Assembly (NCBI GenBank): GCA_051942245.1 | Contig: JAVECL010000009.1 | Location: forward strand, 62,001-126,000 | From: Trypethelium eluteriae | Taxonomy: Eukaryota | Length of the DNA: 64,000 bases | Direction: 5' to 3' | In this document: positions 53,662-63,704 of the stretch, one piece after another | Position numbering within the stretch: position 1 is the first letter of the stretch | Layout: every line of letters begins with the position of its first letter | Position numbers and translations under genes: made by a program | The notes under the pieces: generated by a model | Told to the model about the DNA's origin: nothing | What the model saw: only the letters and a program-made list of their open reading frames with translations | Database searches by the model: none

Positions 53662-55385
53662 GCACCGCTGTGGACTATAATGAATGGTCTCTATTCTCCA
53701 AAGTTGTATTATATAATCAAGCTACTCTGTTCGCTGCACGAGGATACATCATGTGGAAGAATTGTATCCCTCAGCTTATTTTCTCAGTCACATCTCTATG
53801 TTATTCTGCTTGTCGTGTCCCGACATATGCCTCTTCATTTGGTTCATTTCTTTTGCTCAGCCGGAAATCTCTACTCTTGGGAAGAACGATAACTTGATTG
53901 AATGTTTCAGATCATAGACGGGCTAGATTATCAGAAACTTTTGTAACAGGGGGTTTTGATTCTAATACCACCGCTCACGCAGGCGCTTGAGGTATACTAC
54001 GGCGATATCCAGTCGAAGACATCAAACCGACACATCAAGGTGAGTCCGTTCGCTTGAAACTGGATACGCTGTTATGATGCGGCAGAAGCGTGTCACAAGG
54101 AATTCTGGTATCATATATCGGATTTCGAGGCTCTTCTTGCCAAATCAGGTGGAAGGGAACGATCATGGTGAGCATTCCAAACGTCTACTTCTTCGGTTGT
54201 GGTATGGATATGTTATAAGCTGCCGTCGAGCGATATAATGGGTCTTCCAAGTACTTCTCTTCATTCTTTCAAGACTGTCCGAGACCTCTAATGAATCATT
54301 GGTACAATCGCAGCCCCATTGGTTTTTTTCGGTACGTGAAAATCCTTATAGCCTTGTCGGTCTCATGAAGATCCCCTATGCTTCACCGCGACATTTTCGA
54401 AAAATCTTCCCCCCCAAAAAAAAAAAAAACCAAACTATTGATCATCTTGGCCGATTTGTAGAAGCCGGCAGACTATTCTTAGGAGATAATATTTTCCTGA
54501 CGGCTTTTTGTGAAGCTCAAGATCTATCGCTTGACGGAGCCGATTATTTCGCCCGTGTTAACAATCTCCGGTGAAAGCAAGCCAACCGCTTCTCTAAACG
54601 AGTGGGTCAATGAGGTAGGGTTTCGGTATTCGAGAGGAACGCGAGAGACTATAGCAAGTCCCTTCAATGGAGTGCTTGGCCCAAAAACTATAGAAATATT
54701 CACTGATGAGTGATCACAACACCAGTTTTATCAGGACTAGACGCAAGAATACGCGAGGGAATACAAAGGAAGACAGTTTAACACAGCATTAATTGACATC
54801 AAGTACAAGGCAGCGGACGGAGTGAGACCTCTGCCGAATTTTTGAAGAATAATGCCTTTGTCAAGCAGAATTTCATTCACACTCCAGGTCATTGGTCACA
54901 GGCGATCCTTCGGTCATTTCGAGTCCTCATTCTTTCTTTTCCCTGACGCCCCTTCATCAACTCGACGAAATTCAACTTTTGACACGGACATGTGGTGCCC
55001 TTCCGGTTTGCTCAAGTGGAGGCTGTCGGTCAATCGTGAAGGCTACGCTTAGCATATTCGGACAGACTGTAGGTATTGACACCATCTTACTTGATTCATA
55101 TCAGTGACTCCGAATTCAGTAATACTCCAAGTCAGTCTACGATCTGTAAGAGTCAGAGATGAGTATTGCAGTACACTCAGGTTCATAATCAAATTTGACA
55201 CATCAATTCCAGTGTATTTTACAACGCACGCTTTGCAGTATCTCAGAGTAGAACCAGCTCTTTTGTCTTTCTTCAATACTCAAATCACTCCATCTAATTT
55301 TCGATAAAGCTCAGCCTCAAGTAGGACCTGTGAACCAAATCGGCCATAACTCCCTTCTGGATCAGTAGTCACGCATAAGTCTACC

Positions 55386-56459
55386 ATGGTGTCGATTAAT
55401 CAAGCCATCCTCAACCACTGCCATAGATTGCGCGCCGCGATCGAAGACAACTTTGAAGAAGAACCAGTTAAAGGTGGCAACCAGTTGGAAGAAGATCCCT
55501 ATCTGGAACATATCCATAGTGCGGAAGAGGGAATCAAAGAGCTGGAAACCCACATCCTGAATTGTAAGCTGAACCGAGATCGAGAATGGATCTTATTCTA
55601 CCTTCATAATGTCGATCAAAGCTTGAGGAAGATTAACGAAAATATCAAGAAAGGTATAAATCTCGGAAGCTCACATAGAGGAGCATTACTTTGTAAAGAA
55701 GGGGAATTTCAGACGCTACTCAATTTTACGGCAAAGCTTCATGAGACGATTAAGAAATTGGTTGATCCATCCAGGCAGGCAAGTAGACCGCCTTAGTTAT
55801 CAGTGTGTTCGTTGCCATTTTACTAACTCTCAAAGGGATTTCAGACGGCACCAAGCAACCTTCAGTCCAGGTCTGAGAAAGCTGGCCCAGGACAAAGTCA
55901 ATCACAGCGTTCCTCAAACTCGGCTGCATCTTCCGGAGGCCGGGAATATCAAAGAGAGGACTTCTCTTATGGGATTCAAGGTGGAATGAACTACTCTACA
56001 GATTCCAAGGGCAACGGGTATCCATACGGGTCGCAGTTCCCTAGAGGAAATGTGAATCACATGCCTCAATACACACCACCTGCAGGGTATCCGGTATATA
56101 CGTACGCTCAGCAGGGTTCATCGGTTTATGGCATGGCGACAGAGAACTATTCTGCCAGGGGAACTGGCTTCCAACAGCCAACTTGGTCTTCAGAGCAGCA
56201 TCCAGATTATGCAGCGCCTGCTGGAGTTTACTACAATCATGGGCATGACCATTACCCCAGAAGTGAGCGTCACAAGGAATATGCAGCTGAAGGAATTTTA
56301 CCAGAAGACAGGATTGTAGAACTTGACGATGACGAGCCAGACAAAAAGAGTGTCTCTAAACGTCGTCTGATGCTTCCAGCTTCCACAACGGGCAAGAATA
56401 GCAACGAGAAAGGTCCGCAGAGCACTCGAAACGGAGGAAGGCAAGGGAGACGGCAATAG
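55386..56459 (+). CDS. Lineage-specific hypothetical protein (~338 aa), two exons joined by a GC-AG intron
   Basis: ORF from 55386 reaches CAG|GCAAGT (55779), TACTAAC branch point 55821-55827, AAG acceptor 55835; exon 2 is open from 55836 and in frame with ORF 55986..56459. Confidence 0.7.
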
Positions 56460-57681
56460 CAAGCAATGCCGCAGGAACTTCGTCGATTCCAAGATGGTTG
56501 ACGTTGAGAAAGGGATCTCAGGGAGGTAGGTCGATGGTATGGCTGGAACGTACGTCCGGATCAACTCCCTGTTGCCCTCAATGGATGTGTACATAACTTT
56601 TACATATGTGACTAAGCTCGGCATTCAATCTTAAGCTTTTCTGAGAACGAGCCTATTATGTTCCTGGGAAACATTAGACAGCGGGAAGTGTTGGTCCAGA
56701 ATCCATCTCGTGTGAGGTAAGCTTTCTTGTGTCTGACGTACAATATTGTCATAGTCATTCATGTTCAACCTTTGAATGAATTTGAATCTGAATTTGAATC
56801 AAGAGCTCGGGCTAATGCATTCACTTCAAGATCGCGACCTCCTAGCAGATGTGCACTGAATGATGTTCCTCAGCAGGTTAGCCTGACAAACTTCACAGCT
56901 TTGCCATAGGATGACTGTGCATACCCACACGTATTCGACTTGGAGCCTGCCCTTTGCGGTGCAGTCATTTGGCTAGTTGGTGATGCATCCATAGTGATGT
57001 GGAAATTACTAGGTAGGAAATGTAATCCTGCGTTTCATGACTATCTATACCCTGCATTTACAATTCACTCTTGCTGGAATCATAGACGTCACATAAGATT
57101 CACGTCTGTACGATTTCGACAGGGGGACCCGAAGGGATCCAATCTACCTGGTTTCATGAGGCTCATCAAGCAAACAAAGTGAATATGAGGCCCTCCTCGC
57201 ACGCACTATCGGTGCATAATGAATCAAGTCTATGGCTCGTTGCTTGTGAAGAGTTAATTGCAAATGTGTCCGTCAAAACTATGAAGTCACTGCTGCTTCA
57301 CCACGTAGCAAGATAAGACTGAGCCACTAGAGTGGATCAAAGATCTGTCAAACTGTGACTCAACGTTGACGCTTGCTAACCCTTCCATCATTCAGCTCAA
57401 GATCGATACCTCATACTCTGTCTATTTAAGGAGCCTGAGAATCCAAGGTAAAAGAAACGCTAGAGCCATCTTTCCATTCGATATCAGTACCCAGTATTTT
57501 CTTAACCTATTGATCCCACGAACACAAAGCCATTACCCAATTAAAGCAGTTGACCAGAGAGATTCCCCTAGCACAGCGAACATATCTTTTAACGCAGACA
57601 AGTTCCGCATATTCCTAGGTGAAACTAGTGAATATCTGGCCGAAATCTCCCCTGGCATTACAGTCTGAGCTGAAAACAGAT

Positions 57682-58276
57682 ATGAAGAAACTTGAGCAGC
57701 GTCTAAATGTGATGATATCAGATTCGCGAGGTGGTCCAGTGGGTGTTTTCGACAAGGCGTTTAATCGAATCGTCGAGATTCTCCCTCAGGTCTGCTCCAA
57801 ATATACAAACTCCAACAAATGTACCACTAAAGGGAAAGAAAAGATGTTAGACATCATGAAGGACTGGAAAAAGCATGAGCAAGCAATCCAGCAGCAGAGG
57901 GCGAAACAGAACGTGAGTGAAGCTCTGCTAGGGTGAAAGGTGGCCTACGTTAACATATTTCAATCAGCATAGCAAACCAAATGCGGGTGAGAGCAGAAAG
58001 GGTGAAAGTACTCAGAAGGCTAGTGGAGCATCGGAGCCGATGGATGGAAAAATTGTTCCACAGGCAGTACAACCATCAGCTAGTGGTGGCACCAATAGTG
58101 CAGCAGGAACTCCAGATCAGAAGCAAGGGCGAAAGAGCGGAGGCGCTGTAGGTGAACCGCAGGGCTGCTGCTCCTCAAATCAGGCCGAAAGTGCTGACAG
58201 CTTTATAGGCGACAACGTCTTTGAAGACTCATTCCAATTCGAGTGGAAAATGATATCCTTCAGAGGAATCCGGTAA
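57682..58276 (+). CDS. Small lineage-specific hypothetical protein (5' structure uncertain)
   Basis: ORF 57619.. and ORF 58040..58276 are joined in frame by intron 57913-57967 (GTGAGT…GTTAAC…CAG); first ATG 57682. Confidence 0.45.
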
Positions 58277-58467
58277 GAAGAGTGACTGAGATCTTGGAAC
58301 TACATTGGCAACGCTTGTGTTGAATTGTGGCGTAGCATGACTCTTGCGACACCCTTACGAGATCGTCAACTATTCGAAGGAAGAGAACGATGATTGAGAA
58401 CTGCCTCACAATTAATATACAATGTGCTAGGTTGCCGAGCGAGACTTGCAGCCTTTGCGTTACTTAC

Positions 58468-60390
58468 TGTGCTTGGACGGACCTTCGAACCTAGGCTATC
58501 TGTGAACTTTCTCCAAGTTCAGGAGCGGCGGCTATGGCAGGGAAGTGGAATACATCTGTCTCTAACTTTTCATTTCATACTTTTCTTTCGACTGTCACTA
58601 CCGACAATGTGTTCGTGCTATCCAGTCTCTATTCCTGTGAGCCTAGTCAAATGCTGTAGATGATGAGTGTTAATGCTTGTATCTATAACCTGATATCTGA
58701 TGTCCATAATCATCACCTGGGGCACTACTCCATTGGATGCTCAGCCCAGTACTCTACACTTGGGGTCTTGTCTTAGTATGCTGCGAAGCATGGAGTCTTT
58801 GACCGTCCCGCCTTTTCTTTTACCGCACTTCCGCGTCTTCATGATCCCGCATGCCACATTAATGTTGTTGGATCTTGGATATATTGAAAGCTATCTAGAA
58901 GTGGTATGAATCGCAAATCTGTACTTCCGGAGCCGGATACTTCCAACCGCACTCATCGCTTCTCTACCAGGGAATGAAATCAGAAATGTCGGTGCTGTGA
59001 AAGGTAGGCGAAATTTTGACCTCAGCAGGTTTTGGAGGTTCCTCCGGAAAAACTGTTCAAAGTATTGATAAAGAACTGGACGGGAGGTCGCATTAGGATC
59101 AGTAGAGCATCTCGCTTTTGTCCTTGTTAAGCTTCATGCGCCCCGAGATAGCTCATAAAGGGCTTGAGAGCCATAGGCTGTCACATTGTGTCTCAGTAGA
59201 ACTCGCCGACATTCTCTGACCGTACCCCTTTTTACCCGGTCTGGATGTATAGACTATCCATGGGACTACTTACTAATCATGGAAACAAAAATAAGCTATC
59301 TGGGCCAGGAAGGACAACGAGAACACAATGAAAGGCCGAAAGCGAACAGATAATGGAAGAGGGTGTAGAGTACAACGCTGGAGCTTATTCACAACGGATT
59401 GCAATTGCTCTGGGACCGTTGGTATGCATTCATTGGACTGTTACTATTCCAACTGGTGCAATTCCCCCAGAGTCCCTCTCATAACTTTTAGAAGTGGAGC
59501 GCCTAACCGACTTCACACTTATCGGCCAAAGCGTTGCTCGGATTACGTAACTGCTGTAAACAAGGACGCTATAAAAAGCTTGATGCTGCAATGAAAGAAG
59601 ATAGTGCAAGATTAAAAACATGATTTACTCATTGCCAGTGAACAACAGCCAGGATGGAAGCATGTCTGAGACAGCCAGTGAAACAGTCGAAAGGGGTTAG
59701 GGCTGACAGCATATGTGACCGGTTGATTTCCGCGGTTTCCTGGTTCTTCGTGATTGATGCGTGGAAAAGTTCCAAAGCAGACTCGCGATGGAGTCCGTTC
59801 GGAAGGTTTCCTAAAGTCCTTATTTCGGGTTTGCGCTTTGATTTGGGGGATCGCACCATGATCGCCTCTTGGGCCGGTGATCATCCAATGCATCCTGCCA
59901 TCGTATATGCATGGAACGATCAGCTGGAAAACCCCAATGACTTTCCTCGTGTGGTGGTAACTCCGAGATGCTGTGCAGCAGGCGGGACGGACCGCGGCAT
60001 GAATAGGTACGTTGGATGGGGAAGGTTGTAGTTCAGAGCAACCTTCTGAAAGTGTCGGTCCAGCGTCTTCAGAAGAACTTCGCCGATGCAGCCACAAGAC
60101 TGCAAGCTTCCATTGCAATCACCCTGAAATTGATTCAGATACGGTTCAAGGCAGATGTTTGGTTTCATGGGCGAGATGAAACAAGCGTCATGCCCTCCCT
60201 GCATTGGCAGATTGGCTGCATGGGCCTACCCCTGAGCTAGCTTCAACACAAAAGCCCATGAACGAGTCCACACAACATCGGGCTTGCTTTTGGAGAGCAA
60301 CCATCGAAAGGGCTGCTTCTTTCAAGACTTTGTGAAGTTTCGAGGTTGGCAAAGTGGGGTGATCTGTGCGTCCCGTCGAAAAAAGAAGGG
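58468..60390 (-). ncRNA. TER: Putative telomerase RNA (TER), ~1.9 kb; ends approximate
   Basis: Template CCCUAACCC (59702-59694); boundary helix 59978-59968/59712-59703; perfect 11-bp helix 59990-59980/58813-58803; nested helices 60059-60053/58606-58600, 60158-60152/58558-58552, 60202-60194/58545-58537; G-U pairs only valid on the minus strand; GUAAGU at 58467-58462; no credible protein ORF. Confidence 0.7.
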
Positions 60391-60578
60391 TCTCACGCTT
60401 CTGTCTTAGACGTGCGCGCACCTTGCAGCAGCCGTGTAACGCTACCACAGTACCGCTATTTCCCGTGCAGAGTGCTTACCGTCAAGACTAAAGGAAATCC
60501 GAAGAAATAATCAAGGCAATCTTTCCCTGCCATCTCTTCCCTCAGAGACCGGAGTGATCTCCGGCAGCCGGCGGCGCA

Positions 60579-61373
<795 letters not shown>

Positions 61374-61944
61374 CACCATCCACTCAACCAGCCCACTCGC
61401 ATCATTTTTCATCCTTCAATTTACAAGCCACGACTCTCGACATTTGAACCTTTTCTAATACCCATTCCTCTTCTAACGCGCATTCGACAATGACGGTACG
61501 AGTTCAACTACGTTGTTTAAATACCCCAACAATACCCTTGTAATATTAGTTCGACTACTAGGAGCTTTCGCTTCGACCAAGTTTCATTTCCCAATCCCTT
61601 TTCACAGTGGGGACTTGGCAACCTCTTTCTCAACCTTGACCGCTGGGCGGTGTGAAAGATGGGTAAGGTAGTTTTCTCTGCTTTCTCCCTTTTCGTCATG
61701 CTTTTGGAAGATAGTCGAGGGACACCACCGTCTACTTAGGACTGGGTTTTGCATTTTCGGGTGTGGAAAGCATAGAGCAGTGAAATGGAAGATTCTCCAA
61801 TACCGACTTCTCCAGGCTCAATCGTTCTAGAATTAACCAATTCAAACGAATCTGATCCTATAATCCAGATGGCCACGATCCCATACATCCATGTCCATGT
61901 CCCACAGCGTCATCCAAACAGTCACACTCTCCTTACAATAACCT

Positions 61945-63492
61945 TTATTTTAAACCTTCTGTAAGTACGTATCTCCTCTCTACGTCCATCTCTTTCTCAA
62001 TTTCGTCCTCTCCCTCAAACCTCAGCCTTACGGTCCCTCCGCTATCCCCACCACCTACCTTCCACTCCCGACTCACCTCCGCTTTGTAAAAAGTCGTTGT
62101 ATTAGGATACAGCGCCAGCACCTGCTTTCCCTTCTCCAACGGGCTGGCCCCCTTCGCCGATGACGTTCCCGCTTCCTCCTCGACCCCCGGGGGTGGTGGG
62201 ATGGGAATGAGGTACTGCACACTCGCTTTCGTCGGTGGCGGGATCTGGCCCGTCGTCGGATCTGGTTCAGGATCGGTATCCTGGATTTCGTAGCGCCGCT
62301 GCTTGCCCTCCCCATTGATAGAGGTGATGGTGCAGAGGATGCCGGAGCCCTCTGCGTTGCGTGCCTTGTTGCGGAAGAAGACCTCGGCACCAACGTGCAG
62401 TTTCTGTGGTCGATTTGCGCTGGGGGTGATCAGCGGGTTGGCGGGACCGGGAGTGGTGGTCGACGTTGAGGAAACAGGTTCCTTGACCGCGCTACCGTCC
62501 AGGGAGGAAGAATCGCCAACATCTTCTAACTTGACGGAAACGCTGCCGTCTCGAGTGGAGGATGGCACAGAGCCGGAGCGTTTGTCTTTGTGAGTAGACG
62601 CAAGCTTGGAAACACCTGTGGCGACTTTGGGGGAGATACCAACATTGGCGGGAGCCGGAGATTTGCCTTCATTGTCATCGGCAATGGCGCTTCCGCTACT
62701 GGGAGCATTGCTAGTTGAGTTCGCCGCCGTACTGGCATCGAATTTGCGTTTTCGATCACGAGCGGGCTTGGCAGTCGAGCTTGACCGTGACATAGGGGCT
62801 GATGCATTGGCACCGTGGTGCGGGTCAGATTCAGAAGCTGCACGGAGCGCAGCAAGGACACCAAGCGCAGCGATGATAGAGGGCGATTCGTTTTTCGTTT
62901 CCAGGATGTGCAGGGCCTCTTCAGTATGTTTGAGAGTGGTACGATAGAGAGACTCGAGTTCTGTATCGAGGGCGGCAGAGGGTATGTCATTCCGTGCTTG
63001 AGAGACGATCAGCATGAATACGTTAGATTTGCAGGCGGAGGTCCTCGGACTGTCATGTATGGCTAACGGGATGAGAGAGGATCAAAACTGTACCATGCCA
63101 GGGGAAGAGAGGAGACGATGGAGAATAACAGTGCGACTTGTCCAACTGGTATGTTGTAATACAGCGGAATGATAAAGAAAGACTTCGAGATAACTCAGGA
63201 CAGCCATTTGAGCAGAAGGCCAGCAAAGAGAGTTTATGCAATACGTATTGTGACGCGTACCCAAAGCAGTTGCTTGTTGGTCCTCCACATCCATGATTTT
63301 CTGAGAGGCGGTATTCATTTTCGCCTAATTAGTGTTAGCTACTCAAACTGATGTGGCCGGATGAATCGTCTCATATACTACAAGTGCGTCGACTTTTTTC
63401 CCGTCAGCAAGCATTCCTTTCCATAAGTCACGTTCCTCATTTGCATCATCTTTCACCAGCGCCCGGCCTGTTCTCGGGCGCGCTGTGGCCAT
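61945..63492 (-). CDS. SGF29: SAGA-associated factor 29 (tandem Tudor)
   Basis: Exon 1 MATARPRTGR…NEERDLW; C-terminal GILCTI…RRYEIQDTDP and KQVLALYPNTTTFYKAEV…LRFEGED…VERRYVL; two introns (second ~263 nt). Confidence 0.9.
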
Positions 63493-63704
63493 GCCCTATT
63501 ACCGCGGTTGCAAATGCTAACAGGAATGGCTTGTGAGAGGCCTCTTTTCCCGGAAAGAAAATCAAACAAGTACGGAAGATAGATCTACAAGAACCGTGAC
63601 GGAGGGGTAGCAAGGTCGGAATGCTTGGGTGAATATCTCAGGCGGTAGCGATGCTCCCAGAATTGTCATGTTTAAATGGAGATGGACGTGATTTGACAAG
63701 GGAG

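Follow-up and report, generated by a model that had tools for sequence, protein, structure and literature searches.

A putative telomerase RNA locus of Trypethelium eluteriae with a predicted boundary helix between core-enclosing helix and template

Does the DNA upstream of arf6 in Trypethelium eluteriae encode a telomerase RNA (TER), and is the helix beside its telomere-like 9-mer the template boundary helix (TBE)? The question was addressed in a stretch of 64,000 nucleotides (contig JAVECL010000009.1 of assembly GCA_051942245.1, positions 62,001 to 126,000; hereafter the window, in whose coordinates all positions are given). The locus is likely a TER, an estimate in which the joint rarity of its elements was weighed against the hundreds of windows of this size per genome and the post hoc choice of motifs. 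Reading the order core-enclosing helix (CEH), TBE and template as a telomerase-RNA core is probably right; this reading was drawn from joint geometry and downstream motifs, not from homologs or expression. With a little less assurance, we favour the helix as the TBE of this fungus's TER gene on the minus strand, working by the mechanism proposed below. The features concerned are as follows.

60579–61260, plus strand: arf6 from the start codon through the third exon, assigned from the sequence and Pfam Arf (PF00025)
59990–59980, minus strand: CEH1 5' strand (CCGTCCCGCCT), 11 bp, unique perfect partner at 58813–58803
59979, minus strand: G between CEH and TBE, predicted partner template C59702
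59978–59968, minus strand: putative TBE 5' strand (CTGCACAGCAT), pairs with 59712–59703
59713–59967, minus strand: arm of 255 nt closed by the TBE, with hairpins at 59770–59804 and 59878–59922
59712–59703, minus strand: putative TBE 3' strand (ATGCTGTCAG), pairs with 59978–59968
59702–59694, minus strand: template core CCCTAACCC, that is CCCUAACCC, 9 nt for TTAGGG, sole copy in the 64 kb
59692–59693, minus strand: C-U flank at the template 3' side, extending the template to 11 nt for TTAGGGG
58803–58813, minus strand: putative CEH1 3' strand, perfect complement of 59990–59980

The gap divergent from arf6 measured about 2–2.2 kb and held no protein recognisable by Pfam or protein-relative searches, in keeping with the non-coding length of about 1.5–2.4 kb expected of a Pezizomycotina telomerase RNA. 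The arf6 start (60579, plus strand) lies 877 nt from the template, and transcription of the putative RNA gene would head away from arf6 along the minus strand, its 5' end lying at roughly 60.2 kb. Among fungal arf6 loci (the best 80 of 319), linkage of arf6 to SGF29 was widely conserved, and the mitochondrial carrier gene found at 52.5–53.7 kb of the window was near arf6 in 12 of the 80 other loci. The neighbouring SGF29 frame matched a Viridothelium virens protein at 100% identity, the next named matches being Bathelium and Bogoriella, which places the DNA in a lichen fungus of the Trypetheliales (Dothideomycetes). The block from the carrier gene to arf6 (53700–60550, about 6.9 kb) was lineage-specific. 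Within it, an orphan coding frame at 55827–56459 (plus strand) had matches only in Viridothelium virens and Trypethelium eluteriae and none in Pfam. At 57309–58276 (plus strand), open frames of 119, 105 and 114 aa overlap in successive phases; none of the three had a Pfam match, and the third (ORF 57932–58273) had no longer homologs. Together they are possibly a decayed or orphan gene. Only two short tandem repeats and no telomeric arrays were found in the window.

A stop-free frame of 168 codons runs across the feature itself (59612–60118, minus strand). Given this frame and the lineage-specific block around it, the feature could be overlain by an unrecognised protein-coding gene or a mobile-element relic, but this was judged very improbable: the frame had 0 relatives among 1.84 billion proteins, a Pfam search with five frames inside the locus gave no match, and the block showed neither RIP-like dinucleotide skew nor an internal repeat, with no second copy in the window.

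The preliminary description had proposed the pairing of 59978–59968 with 59712–59703. All bases that it listed are present, forming 10 bp with one bulged C at −11.2 kcal/mol, and the intervening arm, given as about 250 nt, measured 255 nt. As to the two hairpins assigned to this arm, 59770–59804 was strong (z −3.45, 0/200 shuffles), whereas 59878–59922 was not above chance (z −1.03, 34/200).

CEH1 would join the TBE side to the pseudoknot side, as expected for core-enclosing helix 1 of a Pezizomycotina telomerase RNA. With 11 perfect bp it reached −23.5 kcal/mol and was the strongest ungapped helix within 60300–58300. Its chance level was marginal, 75 of 2000 shuffles being as good; in real DNA it was matched in 80 of 826 overlapping windows, eight of which contained the same helix. 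The G-rich CEH 3' strand had two further partners (59089–59081 and 59318–59307). A pyrimidine strand at 59089–59070 (minus) is a mimic of the CEH 5' strand: the CEH 3' strand and the adjoining A-run can each serve as its partner, and it competes with the core in free folds. For core-enclosing helix 2 the following candidate was recorded; at 8 bp and −8.1 kcal/mol it was not above chance (201/300 shuffles as good).

59681–59688, minus strand: candidate core-enclosing helix 2, 5' strand, partner 59058–59051, in a position that fits N. crassa
59051–59058, minus strand: candidate core-enclosing helix 2, 3' strand, pairs with 59688–59681

The TBE alone was likewise not above chance, an equally good helix ending at the template being found in 29 of 150 shuffles. 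That the TBE abuts both CEH and template, as had been noticed earlier, was seldom reproduced by chance: 381 of 97903 random strand pairs had this geometry, and an equally good helix lay between the best CEH and the template in 13 of 2000 shuffles. The putative boundary helix of 10–11 bp is template-adjacent, as expected of a Pezizomycotina telomerase RNA, and its end falls on the template edge or 1 nt within it.

Where exactly this helix stops depends on G59979. The base is present, as the preliminary description reported, but it was predicted to pair with C59702 instead of intervening singly between the helices, which leaves a junction of 0 nt. Adding the G59979–C59702 pair lowers the duplex from −11.2 to −14.6 kcal/mol, and the claim that the TBE ends exactly at the template edge was not confirmed; the side inference that the two bases could pair, which contradicts that title claim, became the default of the energy model (p=0.99 with the TBE forced). 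In every fold where the TBE forms, the probability of the pair tracks that of the TBE (gain 3.4 kcal/mol). On these model energies, the TBE probably ends one base inside the template and has no linker to the CEH.

Folding did not return the drawn arrangement as a whole. In unconstrained folds the TBE probability ranged from 0 to 1.0 depending on the segment folded. Free folding of 59995–58798 gave the CEH and no TBE, and imposing the TBE there raised the ensemble energy by about 6.5 kcal/mol. None of the three global folds contained both CEH and TBE: the longest had the TBE without the CEH, the core-only fold the CEH without the TBE, and the third neither. On the minus strand of 58400–60399, no unusual local folding was detected (z −0.7 to +2.2). 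These results bear on a reading in which the locus is a TER and the drawn helix is not its working boundary: 59979–59965 would pair with 58828–58822 and 59113–59106 instead, and the boundary would be set by another helix or by the distance to the CEH, as in vertebrates. Such pairings do win in free folds with the CEH formed, where the TBE probability is 0, and the unexceptional energy of the TBE alone (29/150) is in line with this. We nevertheless consider it quite unlikely, as the TBE starts exactly at the CEH end and stops exactly at the template (13/2000 shuffles), six 5'-partial transcripts gave TBE probabilities of 0.86–1.0 in three cases (0.6, 0.14 and 0 in the others), and fungal TBEs are described as template-adjacent helices (PMC4993307, PMC3603654).

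Two further 12-bp helices were observed on the minus strand. The first (59693–59682/58596–58585, −16.4) joins the template 3' flank to a strand beyond the CEH; it crosses the CEH, would hide C59693 and U59692, and forms in the longest global fold. It may reflect chance, a misfold or an alternative state. The second (60107–60096/58455–58444, −17.1) links the putative 5' and 3' regions and is possibly a terminal closing arm.

Downstream of the template, a Pezizomycotina telomerase RNA is expected to carry a PK1/PK2 pseudoknot with U-A.U triples close to the 5' side of the CEH 3' strand, and a three-way junction that includes P6 and a 4-bp P6.1 (loop NUNGN). Candidates for these parts and for the 3' end were located as listed.

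58897–58928, minus strand: candidate pseudoknot 5' half, PK1 58928–58923/58902–58897, loop with UUU and GAU
58910–58903, minus strand: candidate PK2 5' strand, contiguous with PK1
58813–58824, minus strand: A-rich strand and candidate PK2 3' strand, A at 8 of 9 positions in 58821–58813, directly before the CEH 3' strand
58503–58521, minus strand: candidate P6 hairpin, 7 bp with a 5-nt loop, formed in two folding analyses
58488–58497, minus strand: candidate P6.1 (AGC-CUAG-GUU) with 3 bp, similar to the P6.1 motif of Aspergillus, not formed in the MFE
58462–58467, minus strand: GTAAGT, possible 5' splice site of the 3' end, canonical GU, no clear branch point

A motif taken from the Aspergillus CS3 alignment (GAAR..TTT..GAT..YTTY) had a single occurrence in the 64 kb. 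It lies 115 nt ahead of the CEH 3' strand, and pairing of its two ends gives PK1; when the 251 nt preceding the helix were shuffled, 15 of 5000 sequences contained it, with gaps chosen post hoc. Candidate PK1 has 6 bp (−6.6), with the CS3-like string starting at 58927, and candidate PK2 is weak (−3.6; 1x3 loop, just three U's in the loop). The candidate pseudoknot, which has to compete with an ordinary hairpin (−9.5), was absent from the top 25 of a generic pseudoknot scan. A-runs like 58821–58813 adjoin 0.4–0.8% of positions. Alternative PK2 5' strands at 59075–59067, 59602–59589, 59052–59045 and 59318–59307 were dropped, having no matching PK1 or U-loop geometry.

The 51-nt fold around candidate P6 was not above chance (z 0.45), and its P5 was poor. 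The strict Aspergillus P6.1 motif was not matched, and no 4-bp P6.1 stem with a 5-nt NUNGN loop was found in 58830–58000. A relaxed P6.1 motif was obtained in 124 of 10000 shuffles, the motifs having been relaxed after the window was seen; the combination GAT..AGYYYAGGYT had one occurrence, downstream, and appeared in 5 of 10000 shuffles. The segment 58800–58720 was rejected as a three-way junction, since it folds as one hairpin (z −0.32). The 3'-end signal of Aspergillus TERs is AUA(A/C)GU (PMC4299874). Neither ATAAGT nor ATACGT, and so no such AU 5' splice site, was found in 59000–57600; ATATGT occurred once at 57958 and GTAAGT once at 58467, and for neither was a branch point found at a suitable distance.

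Rfam includes an ascomycete TER model. The locus had 0 Rfam matches at the gathering threshold, and none to any telomerase family at E<=10. Pattern scans for homologs returned 0 in metagenome contigs and 0 in viral contigs. Around 1159–1164 of one fungal arf6 metagenome contig, the minus strand has a telomere-like run of CCCTAA, which matches all six 9-mer permutations. Of the arf6 loci compared (the best 80 of 319), none resembled the locus (best blastn E 1.1) and none gave tblastx matches to 54–60.5 kb. Among sequencing runs, one was listed as containing the locus, a DNA run (X1), and no RNA run was. An independent contig from run X1 differed from window positions 57500–63500 at 11 of 6001 sites. 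Two of these, 59940 and 58881, lie inside the putative TER, each breaking a predicted A-U pair in a peripheral helix; none fell in CEH, TBE or template, a number of changes too small to carry much weight.

These searches are relevant to a second rival, in which there is no TER and the 9-mer stands in ordinary intergenic or arf6-upstream DNA, by chance or as a telomere-like protein-binding site such as those of Tbf1, among chance helices. It would agree with the absence of an Rfam match and of a homolog in the arf6 loci (best 80 of 319), with the flat folding z-scores, with the singly weak or marginal level of every structural element, and with the presence of seven template-like sites in the window and hundreds of such windows per genome. 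Against it, CEH, abutting TBE, A-run, CS3-like and P6.1-like motifs follow the published order at about the published spacing, and only one of the seven template-like sites combines CEH, abutting TBE and A-run, none of the other six doing so. We regard this rival as unlikely.

The preferred reading, a TER with a template-adjacent boundary helix, is consistent with known systems, and the locus is a probable new member of the Pezizomycotina telomerase RNAs. The order CEH, TBE, template and pseudoknot has been described (PMC13058752, PMC6115765). As in the Neurospora crassa TER described in PMC3592445, a large template-pseudoknot domain would be closed by the CEH, the putative TBE is adjacent to the template and carries a long arm, a 9-nt template (6+3) is one option, the candidate PK1 and PK2 are contiguous, and the P6/P6.1 candidates follow about 300 nt downstream. 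Sizes are similar, with a core of 1188 nt here versus 1291 nt and a distance from core to P6 of 282 versus 311 nt (PMC3592445). The TBE arm has 255 nt here, compared with a 178-nt deletion in N. crassa, where a tetraloop substitutes in vitro for the matching arm (nt 256–433; PMC3592445). The template permutation differs (CCCUAACCC here, UAACCCUAA in N. crassa), candidate P6.1 combines 3 bp with a loop of 4 nt where N. crassa has 4 bp and NUNGN, and the candidate pseudoknot is weaker here (PMC3592445).

The comparison with Aspergillus and Penicillium TERs was made by eye on the alignment and the pseudoknot figure of PMC3603654. Resemblances to them are a putative yeast-type TBE of about 8–10 bp beside the template, a very short junction between candidate pseudoknot and CEH, and an unchanged order of similar motifs, namely CS3-like (GAAG..UUU..GAU..CUUC), CS4-like (GACGCGGA..A-run) and P6.1-like (PMC3603654). 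The distance between TBE and template is mostly 2 nt there, compared with 0 or −1 here, and the CEH-TBE junction, which we read as about 7 nt in the A. fumigatus and A. oryzae alignment rows, is 1 or 0 nt here (PMC3603654). Their TBE arm is short, unlike the 255 nt of this locus, and neither their U5 triple-helix loop nor their AUA(A/C)GU 3' site was found here (PMC3603654). The A-run touching the CEH resembles the yeast 2-nt junction 4 with the A-rich strand of the pseudoknot (PMC7685517), and an A-rich strand appears to be similarly placed in Aspergillus on our reading of the alignment (PMC3603654). In S. pombe TER1 the TBE partly overlaps the template and the overlapping residue is used intermittently (PMC4993307); it has another repeat and belongs to another subphylum, and the overlap here is only predicted. 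The boundary architecture as such is not new, having been described for the Neurospora and Aspergillus TERs (PMC3592445, PMC3603654).

Complementarities and positions are what the locus itself offers, and the roles proposed for CEH, TBE and arm would follow from established telomerase biology. The 11-bp CEH (59990–59980/58813–58803) would close a catalytic domain of about 1190 nt and bring pseudoknot and template together. The strand just after the CEH would pair back with the 10 nt before the template, looping out the 255-nt arm as a scaffold. TERT would copy the single-stranded template from 3' to 5', meet the TBE duplex, stop and translocate. With G59979 most likely paired to C59702, the two helices would meet without a linker and might be stacked, and the last template C would rarely or never be used, as described for fission yeast. 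The primer would realign on the run of C's and the U beside it; at either boundary the register with most pairs would give TTAGGGG, and the next-best TTAGGG. The weak pseudoknot would end at the A-run beside the CEH, with a P6/P6.1-like element about 280 nt further. What we infer here alone is that the helices are flush-stacked, that C59702 is used intermittently or not at all, and that the register spans 7 nt.

Which repeat such a template would specify depends on its flanks. A single-stranded template longer than one telomeric repeat, and no longer than two, is expected in Pezizomycotina telomerase RNAs. In the full-length fold, 59701–59694 was unpaired. The preliminary description held that both flanks break the repeat and that the template is at most 9 nt. 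G59703 and C59693 are present, but C59693 breaks only a TTAGGG repeat, and the ceiling of 9 nt applies solely to TTAGGG because 59702–59692 (CCCUAACCCCU) is a perfect TTAGGGG template over 11 nt. The same 11 nt are the longest (CCCCTAA)n match in the window. A primer ending in TTAGGG would form 4 pairs in the GTTAGGG-adding register versus 3 in the TTAGGG-adding one, and if the boundary took away one more base, a 7-nt unit would still result from the register with most pairs (3 versus 2). The C-U flank would arise by chance with odds near 1 in 16. TTAGGG is the repeat in most Pezizomycotina (PMC10100673), and TTAGGGG telomeres reported in Penicillium oxalicum/decumbens, a Eurotiomycete, are a precedent for a 7-nt repeat in this group (PMC3562324, PMC9241887). 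Weighing the 1-in-16 flank against the low prior for a 7-mer, we consider some TTAGGGG synthesis possible, if short of an even chance, provided that the locus is a TER. More tentative still is the full proposal, in which the linker-free TBE against the CEH would clamp the first template C, and CCCUAACCCCU would realign the primer through the extra C and the U, giving TTAGGGG or mixed TTAGGG/TTAGGGG telomeres.

Among the search listings and the papers cited here, no TER or telomere report for Trypetheliales was found. If real, the locus would extend the telomerase RNAs by one that is unannotated, belongs to a lichen-forming order and is missed by Rfam. If the 7-nt proposal is also true, a 7-nt repeat would have originated independently in Dothideomycetes, from two flanking bases, and the usable template would again, as in Neurospora, consist of a single repeat and three bases for alignment. 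Such a case would illustrate one route to a new repeat, in which the register shifts into bases flanking the template and the boundary helix encroaches on the template's opposite end.
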